Source: Patescibacteria group bacterium
Lineage (GTDB): Bacteria; Patescibacteriota; Patescibacteriia; JAACEG01
NCBI GenBank assembly: GCA_034660735.1
Contig: JAYEJQ010000056.1
Location: 1 to 41,361, forward strand
DNA length: 41,361 nucleotides
Direction: 5' to 3'
The position numbers were made by a program, and so were the translations under genes. Every line of letters begins with the position of its first letter. Within the stretch, counting starts at the first letter, position 1. Below, in pieces: positions 147-38,610 of the stretch. The notes beneath the pieces were generated by a model. It did no database searches, was not told the DNA's origin, and saw only the letters and a list, made by a program, of their open reading frames with translations.

Positions 147-343
147 CCAATGCTTTGCATTGGAAATTTCAAGGACACAAGAAACAAGGACACAAATAAA
201 TTAAAAATTTCAATATCCAAATTTTAAATTGTTTGGAATTTGAGATTTGATTATTGAAATTTATTTGTAATTTGCCACCCTAATTGGTGGTCACCCGCAA
301 GGGTGATATCTTGAAATTTGGAATTTCTGCTGTAAAGCAGTGG
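147..343 (+). repeat. 23S intervening sequence (helix extension) at about E. coli position 650; contains repeat module copy 1 (164-269)
   Basis: Non-rRNA sequence between conserved gagggttaatagcccgtgcc and ggcgtgtcttataaacaagacccgaaacc. It is closed by the pairing gtgcc/ggcgtg. The 5' arm is A/C-rich and the 3' arm G/T-rich. Confidence 0.75.
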
Positions 344-741
344 CGTGTCTTATAAACAAGACCCGAAACCGGGTGATCTAACCATGGCCAGGATGAAGTC
401 CAGCGAAAGCTGTATGGAGGTCCGAACCCACTAGTCGTGCAACACTAGGGGATGAGCTGTGGCTAGCGGTGAAATTCCAATCGAACTCGGTAATAGCTGG
501 TTCTCCTCGAAATAGCTGTAGGGCTAGCCTCGGATAAATTGAAGTATGGGGGTAGAGCACTGAATGGGGCTCGGGGGAGCAATCCTACCGTCTCCAACCA
601 AACTCCGAATACCATATTTTTTACTCCGGGAGTTAGACTGTGGGGGCTAAGCTTCACAGTCAAAAGGGAAACAGCCCAGATCGCCATCTAAGGTCCCTAA
701 ATTTATACTAAGTGTGAAAAGTGGTGAGACAACTCAAACAA

Positions 742-772
<31 letters not shown>

Positions 773-870
773 TAAAGAAAGCGTAACAGCTCACTGGTCA
801 AGTCGTCTTGCGCTAAAAATGTATCGGGGCTAAGTATAATACCGAAGATGCGAGTTGATGCGAAGCATCA

Positions 871-1004
871 GAAATTTCAAAGACACAAGAAACAAGGACG
901 CAAATAAATTAAAAATTTCAATATCCAAATTTTAAATTGTTTGGAATTTGAGATTTGATTATTGAAATTTGTTTGTATCTTGTTGCTTGGAATTTGGAAT
1001 TTCT
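871..1004 (+). repeat. 23S intervening sequence in helix 45 (E. coli ~1170); contains repeat module copy 2 (872-977)
   Basis: Lies between accgaagatgcgag... and ...gcggtagaggagcattctg, the E. coli CACCGAAGCUGCGG...GGGUAGGGGAGCGUUCUG context. 872-977 matches 164-269 with 3 mismatches in 106 nt by eye. Confidence 0.8.
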
Positions 1005-1310
1005 GATGTTTTGCATCAGCGGTAGAGGAGCATTCTGTTTGCGTTGAAGCCATATCGCGAGGTATGGTGGAGCGGATAGAAGAGAGAATGTTGGCATGAG
1101 TAACATAAAGACAGGTGAGAACCCTGTCCACCGTAAGCCTAAGGTTTCCTGGGCAACGTAAATCGACCCAGGGTTAGTCGGTCCTAAGGCGAGTCTAGTG
1201 TAGTGCTAGGGTAGTCGATGGATAAGCTGGTTAATATTCCAGCACCACTTTTAAATGCTAAAAAGATGCGTGGTTTAAAAGATTAAGCATACTATGGTTT
1301 GTGTGTTTTT

Positions 1311-1447
1311 CGTGTCTCACTTTCGTTTGATACGACGTAGAATAACGTAGACTAAACGTAGATTAATGCAGAATAATAATTTATTTCTGCGTAGTTCGGC
1401 GTAAAGTCAACGTAGTTCAGCGCCGTGGCAAGCGGTAGCGAGACGCG
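1311..1447 (+). repeat. Hairpin element H, copy 1 (137 nt), inserted in the 23S domain III variable region
   Basis: cgtgtctc...gagacgcg long imperfect palindrome, near-identical to 2119-2253 and 2511-2647. Confidence 0.85.
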
Positions 1448-1643
1448 GAGAAAAGGCTGCGCTACGGCAAAGCTTATTTAATTAAATAAATTACCTAGAA
1501 AAGTTTTTTTGGCTTCAGTTTAATAGTGTCCGTACTAAAACCGACACAGGTAGGCGAGGCGAGTAGCCTCAGGTGAACGAGAGAACCTTTGTTCAGGAAC
1601 TAGGCAAAACAACGGCCGTAATTTCGAGATAAGGCCTGTCCAG

Positions 1644-1990
1644 CCAATGCTTTGCATTGGAAATTCCAAATCCAAAATCTTAAATCACAAATAAATTCAA
1701 AATTAAAAAATATTGTTATTCCGAACTTAATTCGGAATTTGCCCGATTGCCTTGCATTAATTGAGGCGGGTCTGTCATTACTATTTACTATATTATGATT
1801 AAGATAGATAAAACTTTAAATATTATAGTTTATCTTATTGAGTAGTATTTAGTCGGCGGTAAGCGCAGATCCTGAAACAAGTTCAGGATGACAGGTTTTT
1901 TAAAAAGTTTATAATTAAATATTTGAATTTTAATTATTGTAATTTATTTGGAATTTAGAATTTGTAATTTGGTGCTTCCGATGCAGAGCA
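1644..1990 (+). repeat. Large (~350 nt) 23S intervening sequence at about E. coli 1710-1750, with a nested family-A element
   Basis: Lies between conserved ggccgtaatttcgagataaggc and gactgtttagcaaaaaca. An A/C-rich arm (1663-1712) faces a G/T-rich arm (1900-1975). The 23-nt junction gccaatgctttgcattggaaatt (1643-1665) is identical to 146-168. Confidence 0.75.
1713..1893 (+). mobile_element. Family-A MITE-like palindromic element, copy A1, nested inside the 23S insertion
   Basis: Terminal hairpins ttgttattccgaacttaattcggaat and atcctgaaacaagttcaggatgaca. The internal block tgcccgattgccttgcatta...ggcgg..tctgtca.tac is shared with 38540-38585. The block actatattatgattaagat is shared with 4550-4558 and, inverted, with 5078-5096. 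Confidence 0.7.
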
Positions 1991-2118
1991 GCGGTTTGGA
2001 TCGCAGCTAAAGACCCTGAGTGACTGTTTAGCAAAAACATAGCTCCCTGCTAACTCGCAAGAGGATGTATAGGGGGTGATGCCTGGCCAGTGTCCGAACG
2101 TTAAGGAAGGGGGTTATT

Positions 2119-2253
2119 CGTGCCTCACTATCGTTTGACACGACGCAGAATAAGGCAGACTAAACGCAGACTAATGCAGAATAAATTTATTTTTGCGTAG
2201 TTCGGCGTAAAGTCAGCGTAGTTCAGCGCCGTGGCAAGCGGCAGCGAGGCGCG
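2119..2253 (+). repeat. Hairpin element H, copy 2 (135 nt), inserted in the helix 68 region (E. coli ~1860-1880)
   Basis: cgtgcctc...gaggcgcg. Flanked by conserved gtccgaacgttaaggaaggggg and gaagcgcggatgaacgccggcgataactataa. Confidence 0.85.
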
Positions 2254-2510
2254 GAGAAGCTTCTGACTGAAGCGCGGATGAACGCCGGCGATAACTATAA
2301 TCGTCCTAAGGTAGCGAAATTCCTTGTCGGGTGAGTTCCGACCTGCACGAATGGCATAACAACTTGGGGACTGTCTTAACAAAGGACTCGGTGAAATTGC
2401 AATACGAGTAAAGATGCTCGTTACCCGCGGCTGGACGAAAAGACCCCGTGAAGCTTTACTACAGCTTGATATTGGATTAGGGTTATGCATGTTCAGAATA
2501 GGTGGGAGTT

Positions 2511-2647
2511 CGCGTCTCACTATCGTTTGACACGACGCAGAATAACGTAGACTAAACGCAGACTAATGCAGAATAATAATTTATTTCTGCGTAGTTCGGC
2601 GTAAAGTCAACGTAGTTCAGTGCCGTGGCGAGCGGCAGCGAGACGCG
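2511..2647 (+). repeat. Hairpin element H, copy 3 (137 nt), in the L1-stalk region (E. coli ~2110-2180)
   Basis: cgcgtctc...gagacgcg, between conserved aataggtgggag and gagataccaccc. Confidence 0.85.
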
Positions 2648-2698
2648 GACACTAGTGAGATACCACCCTTGTATATTTTTAATCCTAACCCTGCGCCG

Positions 2699-2838
2699 TT
2701 ATTGGCTACTAAATAAAATTTTTAATTTTTAATTTTGTAATTTTATAAATAATTTTTAATGCTTAAATTTTTTAAAAATAATTTTATTTAAATGTTTAAA
2801 AATTAAAAATTATAAAATTGGAAATTTAGTATTCAATA
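2699..2838 (+). repeat. Extremely AT-rich 23S intervening sequence in the helix 79 region (E. coli ~2200-2225)
   Basis: Lies between cctaaccctgcgccg and ccggtgcgggaacagtatctggtggg. Closing stem ttattggctactaaat / atttagtattcaata. Confidence 0.7.
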
Positions 2839-3127
2839 CCGGTGCGGGAACAGTATCTGGTGGGTAGTTTGACTGGGGCAGTGACCTCCTAAAGAGTAAT
2901 GGAGGTGTTTACAAAGGTTGGCTATTCCGGGATGGAAATCCGGAAGATAGTGCAAACGCATAAGCCAGCTTTACTGCAAGATTTACAAATCGAGCAGTTG
3001 CGAAAGCAGAAGTTAGTGATCCGACCGTTCAATATAGGATGGCGGAAGCTCAACGGATAAAAGCTACTCCGGGGATAACAGGCTAGTCTGGTCCAAGAGT
3101 TCACATCGACGACCAGGTTCGGCACCT

Positions 3128-3973
3128 CAACATATCGGGGCGCCATCTCGAGTAATCGAGTAAATAAATTTGGCTTATAACGGTGGACTCCATAATTAAT
3201 TTAGCCTATAATATATATTAAATATTTAAATATATAAAATTATGGACAATACCGTGGGAAGTCTAACTCAATATCAATTATCAATCATCATTGGTTCAAT
3301 TTTAGGCGATGGATATATTAGGCAAATAAAAGGAAGAAAAGACGCTTTTTTAGAAATCAATCATTCTATAAAAGCTAAAAAATATGTAGACTGGAAATTT
3401 GACGCCTTAAAAAATATATGCAAATCACCGCCAAAACAAAGAATTATTGATGAAAGAAGAACGGCTTATCGTTTTTATACTAAACAACATAGTGAATTAA
3501 GCGCTTTGCTTAAGTTGTTTTATAAAAACAAAAGAAAGATAATACCGTCTTCATTAGTATTAAATCCGCTAATTTTAGCAGTTTGGTTTATGGACGATGG
3601 AAGCAAATCAAGAAAATATGATGTTTATCTTAATACTCAGCAATTTTCATTAAATGACCAAAAAGCACTTCTTAAAAGATTGCGTGATTTAGGACTCAGA
3701 GCAAGGTTAAACAAAGATAAAAAATATTACCGCATACGATTTTTAAAAGAGAGTATTTCTAAATTAAATGAAATTATTTCGCCTTATGTAATAGAGTCTA
3801 TGAAATACAAATTGAGTTATGACCCCGTAGAGACTTGATTTTAAAATCAGAGTTCCGCAAATGCGCGGAGCTAATACGCCAACTCCGTTTATTGATAAAA
3901 ATGGAAGAAGATATAGTCCATGCCATTAGTAATAATGGAAAGTAATTCCGAATTTACGGGATGAAATAGACAG
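3128..3973 (+). mobile_element. Group I intron in 23S rRNA, inserted after the residue equivalent to E. coli U2500 (peptidyl-transferase centre)
   Basis: Joining ...ggttcggcacct (ends 3127) to cgatgtcggctcgtcc (starts 3974) restores the conserved GGCACCUCGAUGUCGGCUC. The 5' exon ends in U and the intron ends in G (gacag). A candidate guide sequence ggggcgcc (3137-3144) can pair with ggcacct, giving a U-G wobble at the splice site. The core-like string gaagatatagtcc is at 3907-3919. An ORF sits in the intron. Confidence 0.8.
3242..3838 (+). CDS. LAGLIDADG homing endonuclease (double-motif, 198 aa), intron-encoded
   Basis: Two LAGLIDADG-type motifs: IIGSILGDGYI near the N-terminus and LAVWFMDDGS at about residue 112. 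Located inside the 23S intron. Confidence 0.85.
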   Translation: MDNTVGSLTQYQLSIIIGSILGDGYIRQIKGRKDAFLEINHSIKAKKYVDWKFDALKNICKSPPKQRIIDERRTAYRFYTKQHSELSALLKLFYKNKRKIIPSSLVLNPLILAVWFMDDGSKSRKYDVYLNTQQFSLNDQKALLKRLRDLGLRARLNKDKKYYRIRFLKESISKLNEIISPYVIESMKYKLSYDPVET

Positions 3974-4041
3974 CGATGTCGGCTCGTCCTATCCTGGGGC
4001 TGAAGAAGGTCCCAAGGGTTTGGCTGTTCGCCAATTAAAAG

Positions 4042-4085
<44 letters not shown>

Positions 4086-4208
4086 CTATCCGCCGTGGGC
4101 GTTGAAATTTGAGAAGGCGCATTCCTAGTACGAGAGGACCGGAATGCATAAACCTCTAGTGCACCAATTGTTCTACCAAGGGCATCGTTGGGTAGCTATG
4201 TTTAGTTT

Positions 4209-4241
<33 letters not shown>

Positions 4242-4498
4242 GTCTTTAAGATTAGATTTCTCAGATCTCCCAGAGACTATGGGATTGATAGGCCGTATGT
4301 GTAAGTTTGGCAACAAATTTAGCAGAGCGGTACTAATAGATCGTTTTTTTCTCCGCGCTTTTCTGTTTGAAAAGTTGTGGAACTATAAGAATGTCCAGTT
4401 TTGGCGCTCGTTAACGCGTTTATAATTTCGGATTTCAGATGTCGGATTTCAGATTTGGAATTTTGAAAATTATTTTTTATATTGATATATAAAAAACA

Positions 4499-4575
4499 TT
4501 GTCATTCTGAATTTATTTCAGAATCTGTGTTTGTAATTCACTATATTATGATTAAGATTAGTAAAATTTTAAATT
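4499..4575 (+). mobile_element. Family-A element, copy A2 (left half only) in the 23S-5S spacer
   Basis: ttgtcattctgaatttatttcagaatctgtg...cactatattatgattaagatt. No matching right terminus. Confidence 0.55.
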
Positions 4576-4894: not shown

Positions 4895-4983
4895 TTGACT
4901 ATTGAATAAAAATTTTGTAAGATAAAAACATAAATTTGCAATTATCAATTTGACAATTTGACAATCAATTTTTTAAATCTATA

Positions 4984-5131
4984 TTGTCATCCTGAATTTA
5001 TTTCAGGATTTATGTCTGTTATTAGTTGAATATTACTCAGCAAGACAAACTATAATATTTAAAGTTTTAATAATCTTAATCATAATATAGCGAGTAGTAA
5101 TAATAGATCCTGAAATAAATTTAGGATGACA
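4984..5131 (-). mobile_element. Family-A element, copy A3 (complete; interior inverted relative to A1)
   Basis: Termini ttgtcatcctgaatttatttcaggat and atcctgaaataaatttaggatgaca. Flanked by an A/C-rich arm (4928-4972) and a G/T-rich arm (5136-5190). Confidence 0.7.
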
Positions 5132-5197
5132 GTTTTGAAAATTTAATCATTGAAAATTTATTGCAAATTGCCAAATTGGTAATTGAAAATTAAATTT

Positions 5198-7535: not shown

Positions 7536-7609
7536 GGACGATTAGCTCAGTTGGCTAGAGCGCTTCGTTTACACCGAAGAAGTCGTAGGTTCGAGTCCTA
7601 CATCGTCCA
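7536..7609 (+). tRNA. tRNA-Val (TAC)
   Basis: Manual cloverleaf: ggacgat/atcgtcc acceptor, anticodon loop tttacac, ggttcgagtcc T-arm. Confidence 0.9.
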
Positions 7610-7620
7610 CTTTTTTAATT

Positions 7621-7787
7621 TTTTGAATTACGAAACACAAAAAATTTTGTCATTCTGAGGCGATAGCCGAAGCCACGCCTCGCGGGTGGAAATGATTTTA
7701 AAATAATCTAATTAGCATTAAAGCAGATTTTTCGCTCCCGATGGTCGCTCAGAATGACATGATTTTTGCATTTCGTAATTCAAGGTA
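7621..7787. mobile_element. Family-A related palindromic element, copy A4 (core 7647-7759)
   Basis: ttgtcattctgag...ctcagaatgaca termini. Outer inverted flanks ttttgaattacgaaacacaaaaaa / tttttgcatttcgtaattcaa. The left flank matches the left flank of A5 (20298-20322). Confidence 0.65.
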
Positions 7788-7811
7788 ATTTAAAATTTAA
7801 AATTGATTTTT

Positions 7812-7870
7812 GGGGACGTAGCTCAGTTGGTTAGAGCGCTCCGTAGTCCTACGGAGAGGTCGCCGGTGGT
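7812..7870 (+). pseudogene. Truncated tRNA-Asp-like copy (5' acceptor, D-arm, altered anticodon arm, variable loop, 5' T-stem only)
   Basis: The acceptor/D-arm segment (7812-7838) differs at two acceptor positions, and the variable-loop/5' T-stem segment matches, the tRNA-Asp 23 nt downstream. The anticodon arm is replaced by ctccgtagtcctacggag (7-bp stem, 4-nt loop). The 3' T-stem and 3' acceptor strand are missing. Confidence 0.7.
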
Positions 7871-7893: not shown

Positions 7894-7967
7894 GGGGGCG
7901 TAGCTCAGTTGGTTAGAGCGTCTGCCTGTCACGCAGAAGGTCGCCGGTTCGAGCCCGGTCGTCCCCG
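7894..7967 (+). tRNA. tRNA-Asp (GTC)
   Basis: Manual cloverleaf: gggggcg/cgtcccc, anticodon loop ctgtcac, T-arm gccggttcgagcccggt. Confidence 0.9.
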
Positions 7968-8163
7968 CAAATTAGATTAAAATTTTGTTAAGCAAAAAAT
8001 ACAATTTAATTATTTTGTTTTATGCATAGTTGTAATAAGCATAGGCGTTTTAATAGCGATAAAAAAACCAATAGATATTGAAATTGTTAAAAATAAAAAT
8101 ATTAACTTAAATTAGAATTAAATAATAATAAATATTATTTAATTTTTTTATTGAGCAAAGTAA

Positions 8164-9024
8164 ATGAAAATTTTAATTAATACTTTAGATATTAATATAA
8201 CTGGAATTTGTAATTACGCTTGTGAATATTGTTATGGAGAAAGTGATGATATTGATATGTCTGTTAAAATTTTTAAAAAGATTATTATACTTGGCAAAAT
8301 GTTAGGTGTTGATAATTTAGAATTTTGTGGCGGAGAGCCATTGTTGCATAAAAAATTTGTAGAATTTGTAAAAGAAGCAAAAAAAGCTAATTTTAAATTG
8401 ATACTTAGAACAAATGGTATCTTTATCAAAAAATATGAACAAGTAATTATTGATAATTTTGATTGGGTTGGAATTTCTTTAGATGGTCTTGAAAAAGAAA
8501 ATCATTTTATGAGAAAATGTTCTACTTTATCTTCAAAAGAAAAATTTGATTTACCTATAAATAATATTATTGAACTTAAATCAAAAAATCCATCTTTAAA
8601 AATAATTTTAAATAGTGTTGCGTCTTCGCTTAATTATAGGGAATTAGAAAAATTTTCTAAATATATATTAAAAAATCGTTTACCTATTCATAAATGGAAA
8701 ATATATCAATTTTTGGCAAACAATTATAGATCAATTGATTTTAGACAAAAATATTATTTATCAAATGAAAAATTTGCAAAACTAAAAATAATTTTAGATA
8801 CAAAAAAATTGAAGTCAAATTTAGGAGTTGATGTAATATTCAAAGAAGCTCATGAAAATAATTTAAGTTGTATTATAATTAAGTCAAAAGGAGATATATT
8901 TATAGGAGGCAAAAAAATAATAAATATTAATAAAAATAATTTAAATTTTATAATGAATAAAATTTTAAAAATTTCCGAACTAAATATAGTTATGAATAAT
9001 AAATTAATTACTTATTCTAAATAA
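8164..9024 (+). CDS. Radical SAM protein, viperin-like (candidate prokaryotic viperin)
   Basis: CNYACEYC (CX3CX2C) preceded by INIT. The blocks EFCGGEPLL, LRTNG, GISLDG, KIILNSV and HKWKIYQF are collinear with human viperin blocks NFSGGEPFL, VSNGS, AISCDS, FKINSV, VRWKVFQC (recalled, not computed). The gene is much more AT-rich than its neighbours. Confidence 0.6.
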   Translation: MKILINTLDINITGICNYACEYCYGESDDIDMSVKIFKKIIILGKMLGVDNLEFCGGEPLLHKKFVEFVKEAKKANFKLILRTNGIFIKKYEQVIIDNFDWVGISLDGLEKENHFMRKCSTLSSKEKFDLPINNIIELKSKNPSLKIILNSVASSLNYRELEKFSKYILKNRLPIHKWKIYQFLANNYRSIDFRQKYYLSNEKFAKLKIILDTKKLKSNLGVDVIFKEAHENNLSCIIIKSKGDIFIGGKKIININKNNLNFIMNKILKISELNIVMNNKLITYSK

Positions 9025-9128
9025 TTAGATATATTTTGCGAAAAAAATAATTTGTCAATCGGTTTCCAATATGAGGTGGACTAATACACTTTATTTACAA
9101 ATTAAAAATAAATTGCTATAATTAAAAT

Positions 9129-9301
9129 AGATTTACTGCATAATAAGTTGTGTGGCGAGATTTTTAGATTTTTAGGCAATTTTTAAAAATTTTATAAGTA
9201 TATTTCGTAGTCCTACAGAGGGCGTTGAAAAATTTGACCAAAATATATCTGTCCGCCTTTAGAGGAGAAATCGCAACAGTAAATTATTATGTAATAGTTC
9301 T
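9129..9301 (-). mobile_element. Family-B MITE-like element, full-length copy (inverted relative to 37249-37430)
   Basis: Degenerate TIRs agatttactgcataataa / ttattatgtaatagttct. The interior is collinear with the reverse complement of 37249-37430 (e.g. aaatttgaccaaaatat..ctgtcc.cctttagagg). Carries the hairpin variant ttcgtagtcctacagag (9204-9220). Confidence 0.65.
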
Positions 9302-9368
9302 AACATACTTATAATTTCAGATCTGCATTTTATGTAATATTTTGCATTTTTGAATTTTTTTTAAATTT

Positions 9369-15091: not shown

Positions 15092-15174
15092 TTATCTATG
15101 TTTTTTTTGGTGAATATAAAAAAATTGACAGAAATTATTGATTGTTTATAATAAAAATAAAAAACAATAAAAAT

Positions 15175-15645
15175 ATGAAAGCAAAAATACATTTTTACAA
15201 ACGGGATAATATAAATACAGACGAAATTATTCCAGCGCGGTATTTGAATTGCGACAATGAGGCTGAATTAGCAAAACATGCGATGGAGGATATTGACAAA
15301 GATTTTACGCAAAATGTCCAGCAAGGAGATTTTATTATTGCGGGAAAAGATTTTGGATGTGGATCTTCGCGCGAGCACGCTATTTGGGCGCTTCGCGGAG
15401 CAGGCGTAAAAGGCATAATTGCTAAATCTTTTGCGCGAATTTTTTATCGCAATGCGATTAATAACGGTTTTTTAGCAATTGAATGCTCGGAATTAAACGA
15501 TGATTTAAAAACAGGCGATGAGATAGAAGTAAACTTAGAACAAGGATTTTTTACTGTTAACGATAAAAAATACAATTTTTCGCCAATTCCAGAATTTGTG
15601 AAAAAGATTATGGATAAAAAGGGATTGTTAAATACTATTGAATAA
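15175..15645 (+). CDS. leuD: 3-isopropylmalate/(homo)aconitate dehydratase small subunit (short LeuD/HacB type)
   Basis: GCGSSREHA and FYRNAINNG motifs. The ATG at 15175 is preferred over the TTG track start at 15142. Confidence 0.8.
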   Translation: MKAKIHFYKRDNINTDEIIPARYLNCDNEAELAKHAMEDIDKDFTQNVQQGDFIIAGKDFGCGSSREHAIWALRGAGVKGIIAKSFARIFYRNAINNGFLAIECSELNDDLKTGDEIEVNLEQGFFTVNDKKYNFSPIPEFVKKIMDKKGLLNTIE

Positions 15646-15691
15646 AATTTATTTTTTAACAAGTGGTAAAAATTAAATTAATTAACATTTT

Positions 15692-16756
15692 ATGGACAAA
15701 AAAATTTGCGTTATCAATGGTGATGGCATTGGTCCTGAAGTTATGGCTGAAGCCATTAAAGTTTTAAATAATATAGCTAAAAAATACGGACATAATTTTC
15801 AGTATGTTGAAGCGCTGGCTGGCGGAGTCGCATGGGATGAATGCGGAGAGCATCTTCCAGAGAAAACTTTAGAGATTGCCAATGACAGCGATGCGATTCT
15901 GTTCGGATCAATAGGAGGACCTGTTTCAGACCAAGATAAGCCAAAATGGAAAGATTGTGAGAAGAACGCTCTATTGGCAATGAGAAAATATTTTGACCTT
16001 TTTACTAATCTACGTCCATCAACTGTCTTTAAGCCTTTAAAAAATATTTCAGTGCTTAAGCCAGAACTCGTCGGAAACGGTTTTGACATTCTAATTATAC
16101 GCGAGCTCACAGGAGGCATCTATTTTGGCGGACATAAGACCAAAAATGGCGTTGCTGAGGATATTATGAAATATTCCGAAGCAGAAGTTAGACGCGTCGC
16201 GAAAGTAGCATTTGAAGCGGCAATGAAAAGAAAAAAGTTTTTAATCTCCGTTGATAAAGCTAATATTTTAGATTGCTCTGTGCTTTGGAGAAAAGTAGTA
16301 AACGAAGTTGCCGAAGATTATCCGCAAGTTAAACTCCAGCATATGTATGTTGATAACGCGGCAATGCAGCTTGTTAAAAATCCGCAAGAATTTGATGTGA
16401 TTGTCACAGGAAATATGTTTGGAGATATTTTATCAGACCTATCTTCAACTTTCGCGGGATCGCTTGGGTTGCTTGCGTCAGCGTCTTTAAATGAATCTAA
16501 TTTTGGAATGTATGAACCGAGCGGAGGGTCGGCTCCTGATATTGCTGGGAAAGGAATCGCGAATCCTATCGCGCAAATTCTTTCAGTGGCAATGATGCTG
16601 AAATATTCGTTTGGATTAGAAAAAGAATCAGATAATATTGAGCAGGCGGTAATTAAAATTTTAGAACAAGATTATCGCACAGGAGATATTTGGGAGCAAG
16701 GATGCCAAAAAATAGGGACAAAACAGATGGGTGATAAAATCTGCGGGAATATATAG
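15692..16756 (+). CDS. leuB: 3-isopropylmalate dehydrogenase family (beta-decarboxylating dehydrogenase)
   Basis: 354 aa. GDGIGPEV, LIIRELTGGIYFG, NMFGDILSD motifs. Confidence 0.85.
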   Translation: MDKKICVINGDGIGPEVMAEAIKVLNNIAKKYGHNFQYVEALAGGVAWDECGEHLPEKTLEIANDSDAILFGSIGGPVSDQDKPKWKDCEKNALLAMRKYFDLFTNLRPSTVFKPLKNISVLKPELVGNGFDILIIRELTGGIYFGGHKTKNGVAEDIMKYSEAEVRRVAKVAFEAAMKRKKFLISVDKANILDCSVLWRKVVNEVAEDYPQVKLQHMYVDNAAMQLVKNPQEFDVIVTGNMFGDILSDLSSTFAGSLGLLASASLNESNFGMYEPSGGSAPDIAGKGIANPIAQILSVAMMLKYSFGLEKESDNIEQAVIKILEQDYRTGDIWEQGCQKIGTKQMGDKICGNI

Positions 16757-16818
16757 AATCATTTTAACACAATAACATAATAACATTTAAACATTATAAT
16801 CATACTAAGAAAAACAGA

Positions 16819-16857
16819 CACGGCTTTTGCAATATTGCAAAAGCCGTGTTTTATTTT
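16819..16857. terminator. Bidirectional intrinsic terminator between convergent leuB and asd
   Basis: Perfect stem cacggcttttgcaa/ttgcaaaagccgtg, with A-run and T-run flanks. Confidence 0.7.
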
Positions 16858-16884
16858 TAATATATTTAAATATTTTACAAATTA

Positions 16885-17886
16885 TCAATTTATAATTAAT
16901 TCCGCGATTTGGACTACGTTCAGCGCTGCGCCTTTTAAAATCTGATCCCCGCATACGAAAAATTCTAAACCGTTTTTTCCAAAAATCAGACTGTTCCTTA
17001 TTCTGCCAACCTCAACACTGTATTTTCCGCTGGCTGTTAAAGGCATAGGATAAACGCGATTTTTAATGTCATCGCGAATTTGAATTCCGTCCGCGTTTTG
17101 AAAAATATTTTTAATTTTTCGTATATCAACCTTTTTTTCTGTTTCAACTAAAATGCTTTCTGAATGTGCTCGCATTATTGGAACCCTAACACAAGAGCAA
17201 GAGATTTTTATATTTTCATCATTGAATATTTTTTTTATCTCCCAGACAACCTTCATCTCCTCTTTTGTATAGCCATTTTTCTGAAAAACATCAATATGCG
17301 GAATTAAGTTAAAGGCGAGCGAATGCTGAAAAATTTTATTGCCTGTTTTCTCGCCTTTAAGAAATTTTGTTGTTTCAATTTTTAATTCCTCTATACCTTG
17401 TGCTCCAGCCCCGCTTGCGGCCTGATAAGTTGATATAATAATTTTTTTTAATCCATAATTTTTATATATTTGCCATAATGGAATTGAGGCAATAGCTGTT
17501 GTGCAATTTGGGTTTGCGATTAATAACGAATTTTTTACAGCATCTGGATTTATCTCAGGAATAACTAACGGAATATTTTCATCATATCTAAAAGTTGAAG
17601 AATTATCAATCACGATACAATTATTGGAAGTCGCTTTTTTTGCATTAAGTTTTGACCATTCTCCGCCGATCGCAAAAAACGCAATGTCTAATTTATTGTA
17701 ATCAGCGCGATTTGCGTTTCGCAGGATAATTTCGCCGAACTGGGTTTTGATTTTTTGTCCAGCGGATTTTTCAGACGCGTATAAATTTAAAAATTCAATA
17801 GGAAATTTTCGTTCAAATAAAACATTCAAAATTTCCTTTCCAACCATTCCAGTAGCGCCAAAAATTCCAATTTTATATTTTTTCAT
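16885..17886 (-). CDS. asd: Aspartate-semialdehyde dehydrogenase
   Basis: 333 aa. GATGMVG Rossmann N-terminus and NPNCTT active-site Cys context. Confidence 0.9.
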   Translation of the reverse strand: MKKYKIGIFGATGMVGKEILNVLFERKFPIEFLNLYASEKSAGQKIKTQFGEIILRNANRADYNKLDIAFFAIGGEWSKLNAKKATSNNCIVIDNSSTFRYDENIPLVIPEINPDAVKNSLLIANPNCTTAIASIPLWQIYKNYGLKKIIISTYQAASGAGAQGIEELKIETTKFLKGEKTGNKIFQHSLAFNLIPHIDVFQKNGYTKEEMKVVWEIKKIFNDENIKISCSCVRVPIMRAHSESILVETEKKVDIRKIKNIFQNADGIQIRDDIKNRVYPMPLTASGKYSVEVGRIRNSLIFGKNGLEFFVCGDQILKGAALNVVQIAELIIN

Positions 17887-17892
17887 AGTTTT

Positions 17893-19239
17893 TTATTTTA
17901 TAAAAATTTTATGAAAACCGCGCATTACTTTTTTCATTTCGTCGGTTTTAACGATCGCTTCTAACCGTGCGCAATTTTTATATGGAAAAGCGCCAATTTG
18001 CGGATCAGGGCAAATTTTTATCAAAGTGTTATTGAAAGTGCTTACTGTTTTCCAGTCTAAATTTCCAATCAACATAACCATATTTACTGGTGACGCGCTT
18101 ATTTTACAATTTTTCTTTTTTATTTCTTTAATCGCTTTTTTCAAATTTTTATTTCTGCTACCAACAACTATCTGTAAACTATCGCGCGTATTCCGTATTA
18201 AAACCATATTAAGCGCAAGCAAATTTAAAATCTTGCTTATTTCAAAAAGAAATCCGTGCTCATTAATTCCATTACCGCTAACAATTATCATTGCCAGCCC
18301 TTTTTTAAAACCGATGATTTTCGCGCCTTTTTGTTTTGAACTATCCGCTTTTATTAAAGTTTTGTTATTATAATTAATAATTGACGCGACTTCAACGGTT
18401 GTCCGTGTTTTTTCAACATATTGCATAGCTTTATTATGGATAATTTTGCCAGCCTCTTCTGCTTCAATATAACTTAAACAAGATACTGTTTTTGTGTTTT
18501 TAACAATTCTCGGATCGGCAGATAAAACTCCATTGACATCTTTCCATAAAATAATTTTATTGGCTTTTACAGCCGCGCCAACAAAACAGGCAGTCGTGTC
18601 TGTTCCGCCACGTCCCAAAATCGTTGTTCGGTTATTTTTTGTAATTCCAGTAAAACCAGCAATTACTGGAATTGATTTTATATTTTTTAATTTCGCGCGA
18701 ATATTTTTCGCAGAAATTTTATAATCAATATTTGCGTTAAGATAATTGTCGTCCGTAATAATCGGAATATTCTCTGCAAATAATTTTTGCGAGAATAGAT
18801 TACTAGAATTTAAAAATTCAGTAAAAAAAATGGTTGACATTTTTTCGCCATAAGATAAAATTTTATCGCGGAAAATATCCAATGAATTAAATTTGCGTAT
18901 TTTTTGAAAATCAATTTCAAGATTTTTTAACAAATTATCAATTTCAGTAATGGCGATTTGCTGATTTTTTTTATCCATTTTTACGAAGTTAATCATCTTA
19001 ATATGCTTCGTGCGGATTTTTTCAATAGATTTTTTCTCAATTTCTTTATTTTTCTTATATAATAATAGATTTTCTAAAATATCAGTCACGCCATTTAAAG
19101 CTGAAATAACAACAATCGGATAAAATCCGTTTTCAATCTGTTCCTTAATCTGTTTTTTTATTAATAAAATAAATTTTTGCGTAAGAATTCCACCGCCAAA
19201 TTTATTTACTATGATTCTGTTTTGTGTTTTTGTTTTCAT
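17893..19239 (-). CDS. Aspartate kinase
   Basis: VNKFGGG N-terminus, GRGGTDTTA motif, ACT-like C-terminus. The ATG at 19239 is preferred; the track start at 19296 is TTG and would overlap the upstream gene by 50 nt. Confidence 0.8.
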   Translation of the reverse strand: MKTKTQNRIIVNKFGGGILTQKFILLIKKQIKEQIENGFYPIVVISALNGVTDILENLLLYKKNKEIEKKSIEKIRTKHIKMINFVKMDKKNQQIAITEIDNLLKNLEIDFQKIRKFNSLDIFRDKILSYGEKMSTIFFTEFLNSSNLFSQKLFAENIPIITDDNYLNANIDYKISAKNIRAKLKNIKSIPVIAGFTGITKNNRTTILGRGGTDTTACFVGAAVKANKIILWKDVNGVLSADPRIVKNTKTVSCLSYIEAEEAGKIIHNKAMQYVEKTRTTVEVASIINYNNKTLIKADSSKQKGAKIIGFKKGLAMIIVSGNGINEHGFLFEISKILNLLALNMVLIRNTRDSLQIVVGSRNKNLKKAIKEIKKKNCKISASPVNMVMLIGNLDWKTVSTFNNTLIKICPDPQIGAFPYKNCARLEAIVKTDEMKKVMRGFHKIFIK

Positions 19240-19246
19240 AATTTTC

Positions 19247-20254
19247 TTATTTTTCCAAAATAGTCTCTTTAATCTTCTGCCCAAAATGCCTTCCAACTCC
19301 GCGCTCTTGTAAAAATACTAAAATTTTATCGCCCTTTTTTAATTTGACAACGGAAATATATCCGTTGTCTTTTTTGGTTAGGCGGATTGTTTCTGCGTTT
19401 TGCATTATCAAACTTATATTTCTGTTTTCAAATTTTGCTTTAACAATCAGCATCGGTCTTTTTTCAATTTTTACTCGCCCGATAATCGCTTGCTCGGTAT
19501 TTCCTTTGGAATCAATAATTAACGACTTGTCTCCGCTTTTTAATTCAGCGAGGTATTTTGTTTTATCGTTCGGCATTCTAATATAAGCATGCGCGCCGCC
19601 AGCATTTACCCTGAAAGCGCGCGGATCGCAATATGGATTTTCAACATTTTCATTATAAACCAAAAACATAGCGCTTGACGAATCGCCGACCAACATCCCT
19701 TGTCCTGGGTTTAAAATTGACGAAGTATCAATTACAACTCTGTCGCCGATGCCAAGCGCTTCTACGTTTGTAATTTCAGCTTCAACTAATTTTAATTTTT
19801 CGTTTTGCGTTTCTTTAATAAGTCCGCCGACTTTTTTGATTTCATTTAAGTCGCTTGTTTCTAATAAAATTCCGTCCGCGCCAACCTCCATAGTTTCTAA
19901 CGCTAATTTTGCTTCTTTGTAATTTTTAACACATTGAATTATATTTGAAGTTTTAGAAATTAAATTTTCTAATGGAATAATTGTCCATTCTTTATTTTTA
20001 ACAATAATCGGGATTTTACCTTGATATTTAATCGCTTCATCTTCTGATTCTTTTGTTGTTAAAAAAACTTCCGCAACATTTTTATTTATTTTTAAATCTG
20101 CTTTTTCGCTATCGGAAATAATTAAAGTCCGTGATAATTTTTTAATCTCATCAATATTTTCAGGTTGAACATAAATCGCTTCAAATCCGCTTTCAATCGC
20201 TAAAGTAGCCAACTTTTTATCCCAAAAAGGGAGTTTATACCAAAATTTTTTCAT
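19247..20254 (-). CDS. 3-dehydroquinate synthase II (archaeal type)
   Basis: Collinear with my recollection of M. jannaschii MJ1249: WTIIPLENLI, GDRV.IDT, ENPY...R.FRVNAG..HAY, KTKYL.ELK.GD, GRVKIE.RP, QNAETIRL, RHFG..IKETI.EK. Confidence 0.85.
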   Translation of the reverse strand: MKKFWYKLPFWDKKLATLAIESGFEAIYVQPENIDEIKKLSRTLIISDSEKADLKINKNVAEVFLTTKESEDEAIKYQGKIPIIVKNKEWTIIPLENLISKTSNIIQCVKNYKEAKLALETMEVGADGILLETSDLNEIKKVGGLIKETQNEKLKLVEAEITNVEALGIGDRVVIDTSSILNPGQGMLVGDSSSAMFLVYNENVENPYCDPRAFRVNAGGAHAYIRMPNDKTKYLAELKSGDKSLIIDSKGNTEQAIIGRVKIEKRPMLIVKAKFENRNISLIMQNAETIRLTKKDNGYISVVKLKKGDKILVFLQERGVGRHFGQKIKETILEK

Positions 20255-20297
20255 AAATTTTAAAAGTTAAAATAAATATTAAGATATAAAAATATTA

Positions 20298-20484
20298 TTT
20301 TGAATTACAAAACGCAAAAAATATGTCACCCTGAATTTATTTCAGGGTCTGTCATTACTATTCGCTGAATTATAATTGGATGAATAAAATCTAAATTTTT
20401 ATTTTATACTGCTTAAATATAATATAGTAAATAGTAGATACGAATCCTGACCCCGCTGCTCGCGAGCGGCGGGGCAGGATGACA
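20298..20484. mobile_element. Family-A element, copy A5, in the spacer between ADH synthase and DHQ synthase II
   Basis: tgtcaccctgaatttatttcagggtctgtcattac...caggatgaca. The right-end hairpin is replaced by the GC-rich cctgaccccgctgctcgcgagcggcggggcagg. The string aaatattaagatat is present on both sides (20274-20287 and 20527-20540). Confidence 0.65.
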
Positions 20485-20540
20485 ATACTTGAATTAAAAT
20501 TATTTTTTTAGTTATTTAATTATATAAAAATATTAAGATA

Positions 20541-21293
20541 TTATTGCGCGTAAACCGCGCTTCTTATTTTTTTAATCATAGCAGGGACATCGTCGGCTTG
20601 AAAAGCGTTGCGTCCGACTGAAACTCCTGCGGCTCCTACTGAAACACAATCACTAATAGATTTTAGCATTGTTTCTTCGCTTCCTTTTGCTCCGCCAGCG
20701 ATTACAACAGGAATATCAACACCATCGCAGACTTTTTTAAAACTTTTCGCGTCTCCTGTAAATGGAACTTTTACGATATCCGCTCCGAGTTCAAACGCTA
20801 CGCGCGCGGCATGCTTTACTTTTTTCGTGTCTGTATAATTAATAATCTTTCCATCAACTTCATCTCGCGGGTACATCATAGCAAGCAGAGGCAAGCCGAC
20901 TTTTTCGCACTCATAAGAAATTTTTCCTAAATCCGCCAACATTTCAGGCTCGTATCTGTTTCCTAAATTTATATGAACTGAAACTCCTTGCGCGCCCATC
21001 TCTTTTATTTCTTGTGGAGTTGCGATTAAAACTTTTTTTAACACAACGCCCATTCCTGTTGAAGCGGAGCAATGGATAATTGTCGGAAGATCGCCGATAA
21101 CCATTTTGTATTTTTTGTAAATTCCTTTATGGATTACAATCGCGTCAACTCCTCCTTCTTTAACGTTCGCGATAGTTTTTTTTATATCAATTAATCCGTC
21201 AATCGGTCCGTCGCTAACCCCATGATCCATTGGCAGAATAACAGTTCTGCCTTCAGGGCTGATAATTTTGTCCAGCAAATTTTTTTTGTCCAT
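20541..21293 (-). CDS. 2-amino-3,7-dideoxy-D-threo-hept-6-ulosonate (ADH) synthase, class I aldolase DhnA family
   Basis: Collinear with my recollection of MJ0400: PMDHGVS.GPI.GLIDI.KT, AMMYPR, HAAR...ELGADIVK, GAAGV.VGRN.FQ.DDV. Confidence 0.8.
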   Translation of the reverse strand: MDKKNLLDKIISPEGRTVILPMDHGVSDGPIDGLIDIKKTIANVKEGGVDAIVIHKGIYKKYKMVIGDLPTIIHCSASTGMGVVLKKVLIATPQEIKEMGAQGVSVHINLGNRYEPEMLADLGKISYECEKVGLPLLAMMYPRDEVDGKIINYTDTKKVKHAARVAFELGADIVKVPFTGDAKSFKKVCDGVDIPVVIAGGAKGSEETMLKSISDCVSVGAAGVSVGRNAFQADDVPAMIKKIRSAVYAQ

Positions 21294-21858
21294 AAAATTT
21301 ATAATTATATATTAAATTTTGACATATTTTATTTCCTTATTTTTTAACACTCCTTGACAATGGAGAGTCGGGGAGGGTTTTTTAAAAAATTTAACCCCTT
21401 AAATTATCTTTGTCAGGTGGGATTTAATATGAAATATGCTAAAGTTTAGTTATATAAATTAGAAAAACCTCTTAGTGAGGCTTTTGTTTTTTTTAGTTAT
21501 TTTATAAATTAACAATCGCCTCAAATAATAAAATTAAAAAAATAATAAGATACGAAAAAAGAGAAAAATAAATTTTCCCAAATATTAAATACAACTATTT
21601 TTTCTGCTTTAATTAAATTCATTATATATTTTAAATTTTTTGCGACTTTATAATATATTTTACTTCTTATTATATTTTTGTCAAATAATTGATTTTTGTA
21701 AAAGATAGTGCTAATATGTATATAAATTAAAATTTTATATAATAGATTTGCCGCATAATTAATTTCTATCGTGATTTTTTTTCCAAAAAACGGATAAGCA
21801 ATTTTGACCAAATTTTTCAAAAATTTTAACGCCTTCCGAAGCACTTTGGCGGACTTAT

Positions 21859-21930
21859 AAAATTGTTTGAAAAATTTGTCTCACCCCGTAGTCCTACGGG
21901 GCGTCACGAAACTAATTACGCGGCAAGTCT
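21859..21930 (+). mobile_element. Family-B element, right-half copy, ending 12 nt before the ilvB ATG
   Basis: aaaaatttgtctca-ccccgtagtcctacgggg-cgtcacgaaactaattacgcggcaagtct, collinear with 27227-27300 and 37355-37430. Confidence 0.6.
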
Positions 21931-21942
21931 AATTCTTATTTT

Positions 21943-23631
21943 ATGATTGGAGCAGATATTTTGTTAAAATCTTTATTAAAAGAAGGAGTAGAAATAATTT
22001 TTGGCTATCCTGGAGGAGTAACAATTCCATTGTATGACAAACTTAAAAATTATCCGCAGATTAAGCATATTTTAACGCGGCACGAACAGGGTGCCGCTTT
22101 AGCCGCTGACGGATATTTTAGAACTACTGGCAGGGTCGGGGTCTGTCTTGCCACATCAGGACCTGGCGCAACAAATTTAATTACTGGAATTGCTAACGCT
22201 TATATGGATTCTATCGGAATAGTCGCAATTACTTGCCAAGTTTCGAGCGCTCTTATCGGCTCGGACGCTTTTCAAGAAGTTGATATCACGAGAATTACAA
22301 AGCCGATAACCAAGCATAATTATTTTATTGATAATATTAATGATTTGCCTAGTATCGTAAACGAAGCGTTTTATTTGGCGTTAAGCGGACGACCGCGTCC
22401 AGTTCATATTGACATACCAGTAGATATTTTAAAAACCGAAGTTAAAAAATTCAATTATCCGTCAAAGGCAAGTTTGTCAAGTTATAGTTCTTTGCAAAAA
22501 ATTAGCAAGGAAGAAATAAAAAAAACTTGTCAATTGATTGAAAAATCCGAAAGACCTATTGTAATCGCTGGACACGGAATATCAATATCGCAAGCAGAAA
22601 CGGAATTAAAAAAATTTATTGAAAAAACGGATATTCCTGTTGTTACCACTTTGTTGGGAATTGGCTCGCTGTCTGAAAAGCATCCGATGAATTTTGGAAT
22701 GCTTGGAATGCATGGAATGGCTTACGCTAATTATGCCACGCATAATGCTGACTTAATTATTGGAATTGGAACTCGTTTTAGCGATCGCATCACTGGAAAC
22801 ATAAAAGAATTCGCAAAAAACGCAAACGTTATTCATATAGATATTGATCCTGCTGAAATTGGAAAAAATATTTCTGTAAATATTCCGCTTCTCGGAGACT
22901 GTAAAAAAATATTAATGGAACTGAATAAAAAAATTGTTCAGTTGTCGCATAGCGATTGGGTGATGAAAATTAAAGAACGGAAGGAGCAGACAGATTTGCA
23001 AAAAATAAAAAAAAGTTCAAGGATTGATAATAATAAATGCTTAATGGCGCAGGATATTATGCGTGAAATAGATTTACAGACTAAAGGCGAGGCGGTTATT
23101 GTTAGCGATGTAGGACAAAATCAAATGTGGAGCGCGCAATATTTTGAATATACAAAGCCAAACCAGTTTTTAAGCGCTGGCGGGCTTGGTTCGATGGGAT
23201 ACAGTCTGCCTGCTTCCATTGGAGCTAAATTTGGAAATCCAAAATCAGACATTTGGGCAATAATGGGAGATGGCGGTTTTCAGATGAATATGCAGGAGTT
23301 AGGCGTAATTATGGAACATAAATTGCCGATTAAAATTATAATTTTAAATAATGGATATTTAGGAATGGTAAGGCAGTGGCAGGAGATGTTTTTTGAAAAA
23401 AATTACGCCGCGACTAAATTAGCAAATCCAGATTTTATCCAAATCGCTAAATCTTACGGAATTGAAGCTTATCAAATAACTGAATGGATGGATGCTAAAA
23501 GCAAAATAAAAAAAGCCATCAATTCAGACAAGCCGATTTTTCTTGATTTCATAATTGGCGCTGAAGATATTGTTTTGCCTATGATTCCAACAGGGAATAA
23601 CCTAGGTGATATTATTGTTGAAAGGAGTTGA
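21943..23631 (+). CDS. ilvB: Acetolactate synthase large subunit-type ThDP enzyme
   Basis: 562 aa. GYPGG, TRHEQGA, TSGPGATN, GDGGFQMN motifs. No small-subunit gene adjacent. Confidence 0.85.
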   Translation: MIGADILLKSLLKEGVEIIFGYPGGVTIPLYDKLKNYPQIKHILTRHEQGAALAADGYFRTTGRVGVCLATSGPGATNLITGIANAYMDSIGIVAITCQVSSALIGSDAFQEVDITRITKPITKHNYFIDNINDLPSIVNEAFYLALSGRPRPVHIDIPVDILKTEVKKFNYPSKASLSSYSSLQKISKEEIKKTCQLIEKSERPIVIAGHGISISQAETELKKFIEKTDIPVVTTLLGIGSLSEKHPMNFGMLGMHGMAYANYATHNADLIIGIGTRFSDRITGNIKEFAKNANVIHIDIDPAEIGKNISVNIPLLGDCKKILMELNKKIVQLSHSDWVMKIKERKEQTDLQKIKKSSRIDNNKCLMAQDIMREIDLQTKGEAVIVSDVGQNQMWSAQYFEYTKPNQFLSAGGLGSMGYSLPASIGAKFGNPKSDIWAIMGDGGFQMNMQELGVIMEHKLPIKIIILNNGYLGMVRQWQEMFFEKNYAATKLANPDFIQIAKSYGIEAYQITEWMDAKSKIKKAINSDKPIFLDFIIGAEDIVLPMIPTGNNLGDIIVERS

Positions 23632-27174: not shown

Positions 27175-27226
27175 AAGTTATTAGATTTGTTATGTAATAA
27201 ATTTCTACTGTAATTTTAATCTTTTT

Positions 27227-27300
27227 GCCAAATTTTTGAAAAAATTTGCCTAACCCCGTAGTCCTACGGGGCGTTACAAAATTTATTACGCGACAAGTCT
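27227..27300 (+). mobile_element. Family-B element, right-half copy, ending 1 nt from the ispG stop codon
   Basis: gccaaatttttgaaaaaatttgcctaa-ccccgtagtcctacgggg-cgttacaaaatttattacgcgacaagtct. Confidence 0.6.
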
Positions 27301-27301
27301 A

Positions 27302-37250: not shown

Positions 37251-37430
37251 ACTTGTCGCATAATAACTTTTTACTGCGATTTTCCCTCCAAAGGAGGACA
37301 GGCATATTTTGGTCAAATTTTTTATCCACCCTATCGCGAGAAGGGGGATGAAATATTTGCCTCAAAATCTGAAAATCTCGCGGAATTTATCCCGTATTCG
37401 CTACGGGGAAATTTATTATGCGACAGGTCT
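37249..37430 (+). mobile_element. Family-B MITE-like element, full-length reference copy (182 bp, 18-bp TIRs)
   Basis: agacttgtcgcataataa ... ttattatgcgacaggtct (17/18 inverted match). Internal hairpins ccct-atcgcgaga-aggg and cccgta-ttcgc-tacggg. The first two bases are the AG of the rpsB TAG stop codon. Confidence 0.75.
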
Positions 37431-37454
37431 AATAATTTTATTTCAAATAAATTT

Positions 37455-38511: not shown

Positions 38512-38514
38512 AAA

Positions 38515-38610
38515 TTGTCATCCTGAATTTAGTTCAGGACCTGCCCGATTGCCTTGCATTAAGGCGGACTGGTCTGTCACTACTTATCGCTAAATTATAA
38601 TCAAATTATT
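38515..38610 (+). mobile_element. Family-A element, copy A6 (left half)
   Basis: ttgtcatcctgaatttagttcaggacctgcccgattgccttgcattaaggcggactggtctgtcactac. Shares its interior with A1 (1741-1790). Confidence 0.6.

Follow-up and report, generated by a model that had tools for sequence, protein, structure and literature searches.

Does the lone radical S-adenosylmethionine (SAM) gene beside a tRNA-Asp gene in a Patescibacteria group bacterium encode an antiviral viperin, or does it belong to another family? The gene lies at 8164..9024 on the forward strand of contig JAYEJQ010000056.1 (assembly GCA_034660735.1), whose 41,361 nucleotides as a whole are called the window here. It encodes a 286-aa protein that was recognised as viperin-like from its open reading frame (ORF) and from Pfam, NCBIfam, PADLOC, AlphaFold2 (AF2) and Foldseek results. 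A first-pass annotation of the same DNA had seen in it a horizontally acquired antiviral viperin. Viperin is among the few immune effectors found from bacteria to humans, and the compounds that it makes are natural chain terminators with antiviral action. We find that viperin is the nearest known relative of the protein, in sequence and in fold. Judged by sequence profiles, however, the protein belongs to a discrete family, here called family X, which is set apart from true viperins and falls below the thresholds for viperin membership. On balance we lean, with modest confidence, towards the gene being a functional member of a rare family of viperin-like, nucleotide-modifying radical SAM enzymes with cysteine-based chemistry.

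Kinship with viperin and the boundary of family X

The gene at 8164..9024 is real, intact and a compositional outlier. It is the single long ORF in the interval 7968-9368 and starts 195 bp past tRNA-Asp. Its translation carries INITGICNYACEYCYG, EFCGGEPLL, LRTNG, GISLDG, KIILNSV and HKWKIYQF, all in the order that the first-pass annotation had reported. The protein is identical to MEA2065247.1 from a Patescibacteria metagenome-assembled genome, where the NCBI pipeline labels it just 'radical SAM protein'. We take the gene to be real because its match to Pfam Radical_SAM (PF04055) reaches 56.6 bits against a gathering cutoff of 29.5, and because approximately 68 full-length homologues (267-301 aa, at E < 1e-30) were found. 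The three cysteines expected of the superfamily are present as C16-x3-C20-x2-C23, the [4Fe-4S]/SAM cluster motif CNYACEYC (8209..8232, forward strand), which is read from the translation and is invariant in 51/51 family members and 96/96 viperins. The gene has a G+C content (GC) of 0.199 and a third-codon-position GC (GC3) of 0.101, the minimum among the 33 ORFs of the window (mean 0.27, z = -3.5), which bears out the earlier remark that it is more AT-rich than its neighbours.

The viperin-like character first proposed for the protein is upheld by family models, profile comparison and predicted structure. Among NCBIfam models, its best match is NF038283, 'viperin family antiviral radical SAM protein'; the same model ranks first for 51/51 family members tested, none with a match better than E 3.9e-30. 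The PADLOC hidden Markov models (HMMs) for prokaryotic viperins (pVips) also give raw matches to the window protein (PDLC02903 at E 3.9e-30, 103 bits, model positions 4-242 of 257; a second model at 4e-29), and hhalign aligns the family with true viperins at a probability of 99.9 (E 5e-32, residues 6-245). An AF2 model of the window protein built from a 51-sequence alignment (pLDDT 94.3, pTM 0.92) predicts a viperin-type barrel closed by a C-terminal extension. With Foldseek, mouse viperin ranks first, at a template-modelling (TM) score of ~0.73 over nearly the full length; the top PDB matches are mouse viperin (6Q2P, 5VSL), followed by viperin-like enzymes of Nematostella and Trichoderma, in a set that includes 7N7H and 9DFN. 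These viperin matches span 282-307 columns at 18-20% identity, with TM scores of 0.72-0.77 when normalised to the query and 0.72-0.80 when normalised to the target, whereas SPASM enzymes, with E-values similar to those of viperins, have target-normalised TM scores of just 0.46-0.57. The first-pass annotation had set one outcome against its own proposal, namely a best match to another radical SAM family together with a C-terminal extension that does not superpose; this outcome did not occur, as viperin came out best by both HMM and Foldseek and the predicted fold agrees in the C-terminal extension too.

The features shared with viperin (NF038283, TIGR04278; RSAD2) comprise the radical SAM core (CxxxCxxC, GGEP, S/T-N-G and SxD), a partial (beta-alpha)6 barrel that the C-terminal extension closes in the predicted structure, a size of ~280-290 aa, the beta-6 Trp-Lys pair, the Gly of the next hairpin and a C-terminal basic-x3-Tyr clamp. 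Both also have a sporadic, mobile distribution, with VakA-like kinases beside some of the relatives. The protein is nevertheless not a viperin in the strict sense. Its score on NF038283, in a match that ends at model position 245 of 281, is 93.3 bits, about half of the curated cutoff of 180, whereas four human-viperin-like pVips from the same searches match the model along its entire length, at 255-287 bits.

The separation of the two groups is also seen when ORFs are scored with both a family HMM and a true-viperin HMM. The ORFs were taken from 268 loci, the related-locus search having been run with a 12-sequence alignment. Scores on the family HMM are bimodal, with members at 309 bits or above and everything else at 144 or below; true viperins score 150-340 on the viperin HMM versus 53-120 on the family HMM, and the window protein (scored as an identical protein, the L102 ORF) reaches 356 bits on the latter. 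We defined family X by an HMM score of at least 300 together with D9, T13, R82-T-N-G, S105xDG, N113xxMR117, W178-K179, F183, R189, C236, G243 and N-K280xxT-Y284, and every one of these invariant residues is present in the window protein. The family is small: clustered at 50% identity, it makes up only 13 groups in a set of 1.84 billion representatives.

Other radical SAM families are more distant. MoaA (GTP 3',8-cyclase), the usual outgroup of viperins, likewise has a radical SAM core that acts on a nucleoside triphosphate (NTP), and ranks in NCBIfam after viperin and the tungsten-cofactor maturase; the window protein differs in scoring 58-65 bits against cutoffs of 231-325, over residues 5-175 only, and has neither the C-terminal Mob_synth_C domain (PF06463) nor the second cluster. 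Identification as MoaA, as QueE or an activase, or as a tungsten-cofactor maturase was rejected on scores, coverage and missing domains. BlsE (7VOB) and AbmM (8WM2), whose substrates are cytosine nucleosides or nucleotides, are the top PDB matches in single-sequence and profile searches across the N-terminal core, but just ~100-160 residues align, with TM scores of 0.56-0.63 and a root-mean-square deviation of 5.8-8.2 A, weaker than viperin.

Beyond family X there is a large, wider 'cloud' of viperin-like radical SAM proteins of ~280 aa (P0115-P0248), which score 90-130 bits on the viperin model and display several active-site signatures, for example D..R-K-G..K..Y and D-N..R-T-R-R-K. These proteins also have Asp at the N76 column and have mostly kept the Tyr, with Cys in only ~10/109. 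Canonical viperins are one clade only of a wider viperin-like radiation.

Active-site residues of family X

Active-site positions were compared by aligning 96 true viperins and 51 family X members jointly with MAFFT, in the numbering of human viperin, for which the reference sequence used matches PDB mouse viperin at E 1e-189. The roles given to residues are based on the conservation measured here, on the papers cited and on general background. The viperin active-site tyrosine (human Y301, mouse Y302) is present in 96/96 viperins and aligns, in hhalign and in the joint alignment, with C236 in 51/51 family members; its codon in the window gene, TGT, is at 8869..8871 (forward strand). In viperin, this conserved tyrosine is assigned a role in proton-coupled electron transfer (PMC8124187). 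Family X has four invariant cysteines only, namely C16, C20 and C23 of the cluster motif and C236. Active-site cysteines commonly serve as hydrogen-atom donors in radical SAM epimerases and spore photoproduct lyase, so that in family X the radical reaction may plausibly end differently.

The substrate pocket has changed as well. N76, found in 96/96 viperins, corresponds to D9 in 51/51 family members; H78 and K119, each at 0.98 in viperins, are variable; K219 and N221, both at 1.00, are replaced by I/L and by Ala, respectively, and the column of R244 (1.00) has K/R in two thirds of members. The conserved G192-R193 of viperins is represented by R117, one column earlier. H283 and E292 are conserved in viperins and not in family X, and the terminal W352 is absent. 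What has been retained is W245-K246, as the invariant W178-K179, and G308, as G243. At the C-terminus, viperin R346 (96/96) and Y350 align with K280 and Y284, each in 51/51 members, within the invariant K-x-x-T-Y motif that is encoded as K280-L-I-T283-Y284 at 9001..9015 (forward strand) and aligned with the R346-x-x-x-Y350 clamp. Thus, of N76, H78, K119, K219, N221, R244, K246, E292, Y301, R346 and Y350, only K246 (with W245) and Y350 are kept, and family X has its own set of invariant basic residues in R82, R117, R189 and K280. In viperin, R346 and Y350 clamp the terminal phosphate, and their double mutation abolishes formation of the 3'-deoxy-3',4'-didehydro-NTP (ddh-NTP) product (bioRxiv 10.64898/2026.09.10.750538). 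The choice of base is governed by beta-8 loop residues (bioRxiv 10.1101/2023.09.13.557418), and K220, N222 and K247 of the mouse enzyme line a CTP-centred site according to a docking study, which we count as weak evidence (PMC11970327).

The first-pass annotation had proposed that the NTP-binding Lys/Asn/Arg positions be checked. The check came out negative, as none of K119, K219 and N221 is conserved and an invariant cysteine takes the place of the catalytic tyrosine. Because the substrate residues do not agree with those of viperin, production of ddh-NTP and an antiviral role on that ground are not established, and the description of the gene as an antiviral, ddh-NTP-making viperin went too far.

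The reading that we favour, a viperin-like enzyme with cysteine-based chemistry, can be put as a mechanism. A reduced [4Fe-4S] cluster would cleave SAM, and the resulting 5'-deoxyadenosyl radical would abstract a sugar hydrogen of a phosphorylated nucleoside, held by K179, R82, R117, R189 and the K280/Y284 clamp. Cys236, in the place of the tyrosine, would then finish the reaction via hydrogen-atom or electron transfer. With Cys236 in this role, the product would probably be a modified nucleotide other than ddh-NTP, possibly an epimerised or deoxygenated one. In the Patescibacteria genome, the enzyme would act alone on the cellular nucleotide pool.

Genomic contexts of relatives and competing explanations

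Members of family X occur in Patescibacteria/Parcubacteria, Micrarchaeia, Methylomarinum, Oscillospiraceae and metagenome contigs. Among the matches listed for representative genomes of 185,579 species, at least three belong to the family (Parcubacteria, Methylomarinum and Micrarchaeia), and the JGI metagenomes yielded four family loci only. IMG/VR viral contigs held no family X member, the best match being 26% identical and from other radical SAM families, and PLSDB plasmids held none either, with only canonical cyanobacterial viperins at 24-26% identity. In 13/13 loci the family gene has a lower GC than its locus, for example 0.23 versus 0.42 in the Parcubacteria locus L001 and 0.38 versus 0.59 in the Micrarchaeia locus L008. 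A 73%-identical homologue in L100 stands beside a convergent NTP_transf_2 gene, in a gene order that is not shared with the window. The horizontal acquisition that had been suggested for the window gene is supported by its GC3, by the low GC relative to the host in every locus, by the patchy set of taxa and by L100; the gene is probably a horizontally acquired accessory gene. Family X moves between distant lineages, and its genes are repeatedly found next to nucleotide-metabolising ones.

One such association is a conserved cassette of overlapping phosphoribosyltransferase (PRTase), family X radical SAM and thymidylate-kinase-like genes, found in a low-GC metagenome contig (L186, 5046-6928) and, flanked by transposases, in Methylomarinum (L017, 7207-9430). 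The PRTases of the two loci are 54% identical and the kinases 36% identical, and the cassette looks like a candidate defence or nucleotide-analogue system. Kinases of L017 and of a further locus, L010, match the PADLOC model of the viperin-associated kinase VakA (3e-11 and 2.5e-8, respectively). In L010 (1-11400), a thymidylate kinase (TMK)-like gene, a NadE-like amidotransferase gene, Y_phosphatase3, the radical SAM gene and a ThyA/Ham1 fusion occur together, with FtsK adjoining and a CBASS system (SMODS and S_4TM) a few kb away. Y_phosphatase3, 59% identical to that of L010, recurs in L264 (1095-12617; 23 contigs), in an operon of UDP-glucose (UDPG) dehydrogenase, Y_phosphatase3, an AAA_18 kinase/GLF fusion, a family 2 glycosyltransferase (GT2), radical SAM, AMP-binding enzyme and TMK genes, carried by an element that also bears WYL and Macro genes and a gene for a serine recombinase or Rep. 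Smaller groupings consist of radical SAM, PfkB and NUDIX with an NB-ARC/TPR STAND protein (L268, a plasmid-like contig); Fic, radical SAM, methyltransferase and NUDIX (L098); APH kinase, radical SAM and methyltransferase adjoining glycosyltransferases (L004); Methyltransf_21, radical SAM and a radical SAM-SPASM gene among glycosyltransferases and UDP-glucose dehydrogenase (L014); and, in L001, an SNase gene upstream and a MazG-like gene downstream.

The closest precedent for family X is Ophion, whose OpnA is a viperin-related, phylogenetically distinct radical SAM protein that defends against jumbo phages together with two partners, the PHP protein OpnB and the PRTase OpnC (bioRxiv 10.1101/2025.09.30.679545). 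As in Ophion, a PRTase gene overlaps the radical SAM gene in L186 and L017; compared by description only, however, the family X cassettes differ in having a thymidylate-kinase-like gene in place of the PHP phosphoesterase, and the window gene differs in lacking any partner. An HMM threshold of 500 bits for OpnA suggests a different, probably larger protein than family X. Taken together, the analogy with viperin and the cassettes with PRTase, VakA-like kinase, NUDIX, MazG, Ham1 and phosphatase genes make a toxic or antiviral nucleotide analogue the most likely product, and by this analogy a defensive role of the gene is plausible.

Several points weigh against a nucleotide-modifying, possibly defensive enzyme. 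The copies in the window, L008 (Micrarchaeia), L096 and L099 are lone ones among housekeeping genes, with no defence gene, kinase or mobility gene nearby; TruD, Nop and eRF1 are close to the L008 copy, and ribosomal proteins to that of L099. The sugar- or glycan-type clusters (GT2, UDP-glucose dehydrogenase, GLF, SPASM radical SAM) could indicate a nucleotide-sugar substrate. The low GC3 of the window gene may stem from weak expression or weak selection and not from recent transfer. The residue equivalences come from sequence and profile alignment, not from three-dimensional superposition, and the K280/Y284 clamp match is drawn from MAFFT alone because hhalign leaves the last 40 residues unaligned. 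The substrate and the product of family X are themselves ones that we infer.

If family X were a non-antiviral enzyme that tailors nucleotide sugars or nucleoside-type natural products in the biosynthesis of a cell-surface glycan or a secondary metabolite, then the glycosyltransferases and UDP-glucose dehydrogenase around the L014 gene, the UDPG dehydrogenase, GLF, GT2 and AMP-binding enzyme of the L264 operon, the APH kinase-radical SAM-methyltransferase group adjoining glycosyltransferases in L004 and the appearance of the nucleoside-modifying BlsE and AbmM among PDB sequence matches would be accounted for. We consider this unlikely, as the lone copies in candidate phyla radiation (CPR) bacteria and DPANN have no such partners, the PRTase-radical SAM-kinase cassette and the NUDIX, MazG and Ham1 partners indicate free nucleotides, and both L264 and L010 belong to mobile elements, with CBASS, WYL and Macro genes close by. 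A divergent true pVip, converting CTP, UTP or GTP to ddh-NTP chain terminators as a single-gene anti-phage defence, would agree with the first rank of viperin models in NCBIfam and PADLOC and of the viperin fold in Foldseek, with the retained Trp-Lys pair and C-terminal basic-xxx-Tyr clamp, and with the VakA-like kinases adjoining relatives. It is quite unlikely in view of the 93 bits against a cutoff of 180 and the 255-287 bits of true pVips, the clean split of HMM scores, the loss or replacement of K119, K219, N221 and E292, the change of Tyr301 to Cys and the NCBI label, which stops at 'radical SAM protein'.

The protein could also be a housekeeping radical SAM enzyme for tRNA/rRNA modification or cofactor maturation whose gene adjoins tRNA genes by chance. 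The adjoining tRNA genes of the window, the translation and RNA-modification genes near the L008 and L099 copies and the second rank of MoaA and tungsten-cofactor maturase models fit such an enzyme. Set against them are the sparse, patchy distribution (13 clusters among 1.84 billion; at least three among the matches listed for 185,579 species), a foreign-looking composition in every locus checked, the unconserved gene order, and MoaA and tungsten-cofactor maturase scores that are far below cutoffs and cover the N-terminal core only, so that a housekeeping function seems improbable. A SPASM/twitch maturase of ribosomally synthesised and post-translationally modified peptides is hardly credible: PDB profile and fold searches do give good scores for the N-terminal 120 residues against CteB, SkfB and anSME, but no SPASM (PF13186) or twitch domain match is found, three of the four invariant cysteines are in the SAM cluster, the target-normalised TM scores are 0.46-0.57 for SPASM enzymes versus 0.72-0.80 for viperins, and no precursor-peptide gene is evident beside the radical SAM gene.

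We therefore retain the rare, viperin-like family with cysteine-based chemistry as our preferred explanation. A more far-reaching version of it, which we offer tentatively and hold to be doubtful, is that family X might constitute a new class of single-gene antiviral nucleotide-analogue synthases, spread widely but thinly over CPR bacteria, DPANN archaea and the mobile elements of other bacteria. Such enzymes would use Cys for Tyr on a viperin scaffold to make a product other than ddh-NTP (for example an arabino- or xylo-type epimer, or a 3'-deoxy nucleotide), with a dedicated PRTase and kinase feeding them where these are present.

Surroundings of the gene and meaning of the family

Upstream, the gene's neighbour is tRNA-Asp (GTC) at 7894-7968 on the forward strand, preceded by tRNA-Val at 7536-7610. 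The upstream spacer (7969..8163) has a GC of 0.154, no Rfam match and no ORF; the downstream spacer (9025..9368) has a GC of 0.247 and contains a promoter-like site and a repeat that resembles a miniature inverted-repeat transposable element (MITE). The first-pass annotation had called both spacers AT-rich. This holds for the upstream one, although other intergenic spacers of the window go down to 0.15-0.16 and it is within that range, and does not hold for the downstream one, whose GC is ordinary among the window's intergenic DNA. Its description of an islet bounded by a tRNA cluster and a 'family-B element' was likewise right in part. The tRNAs and the repeat are real; copies of the MITE-like repeat are intergenic at ~9130-9310, 21845-21942, 27175-27301 and 37225-37460, and since they also stand between housekeeping genes, the repeat does not show where an island ends. 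The search for a second copy of the tRNA-Asp 3' end or for an attachment-site (att)-like direct repeat in the window gave nothing, and no integrase or other mobility gene flanks the radical SAM gene, which leaves the 'islet' defined by composition only. An integrase-type island at tRNA-Asp was accordingly rejected as unsupported.

Rfam searches of both spacers gave no credible match, with no riboswitch or other non-coding RNA detected, and no terminator-like site was found. As had been noted before, no kinase partner is visible: no nucleotide kinase or defence gene was found within ~10 kb of the radical SAM gene, and its neighbours in the window include no PHP or PRTase gene. The neighbours are housekeeping genes, with products that include an SBP_bac_5 protein, a DksA/TraR protein, a LysM-M23 peptidase, thioredoxin, isochorismatase, an M17 peptidase, LeuD, LeuB, Asd, aspartokinase and 3-dehydroquinate synthase II (DHQS-II).

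Further features of the window were observed alongside. At 9094-9122, 3' of the radical SAM gene and 5' of the repeat element and the dksA/traR-type gene, is TTTACA-17-TATAAT preceded by a TG (11/12), which ranks as the region's best sigma-70-like site. In the MITE-like family, terminal inverted repeats near TAGACTTGTCGCATAATAA are combined with an internal hairpin, CCCCGTAGTCCTACGGGG, and there are long (~190-230 nt) and short (~100 nt) forms. Between tRNA-Val and tRNA-Asp, at 7806-7868, is a truncated tRNA-like fragment (acceptor 5' strand, D-arm, anticodon-like hairpin and the start of the T-arm) that neither ARAGORN nor Rfam calls; its hairpin, CTCCGTAGTCCTACGGAG, shares its core, CGTAGTCCTAC, with the dispersed repeat family, with 4 matches in the window versus 0.1 expected. 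A second dispersed palindromic family, with the core TGTCATYCTGA...TCAGRATGACA, has a copy at ~7625-7785, between tRNA-Val and the tRNA-like fragment, and related pieces at 1705-1802, 4492-4553, 4977-5038, 5078-5136, 20316-20377 and 38507-38604. At the start of the window, the 23S rRNA (188-4356) measures 4,169 nt against a 2,925-nt model owing to large insertions, one of which holds a LAGLIDADG_2 homing-endonuclease ORF (3242-3838, E 2.7e-42); the inserted regions contain three copies of a ~150-nt module (1300-1452, 2108-2258 and 2500-2652) that are 84-95% identical. An insertion-bearing 23S with a LAGLIDADG ORF is typical for CPR bacteria. The stretch 15142-23631 encodes LeuD, LeuB, Asd, aspartokinase, an archaeal-type 3-dehydroquinate synthase II with a DeoC-family aldolase, and acetolactate synthase, an amino-acid biosynthesis content that exceeds expectation for a strongly reduced Patescibacteria genome.

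The locus also carries a warning for annotation. HMM matches at low thresholds, such as PADLOC pVip at E ~1e-30, may give the name 'viperin' to genes that do not have its defining residues. The existence of a separate, sharply bounded family on the viperin scaffold implies a chemistry that goes beyond ddh-nucleotides and may yield new natural nucleotide analogues, as is suggested by the Tyr-to-Cys swap, the re-wired phosphate pocket and the family's own PRTase and kinase cassettes. For Patescibacteria and DPANN, whose immunity is poorly known, the gene would represent a candidate single-gene defence.

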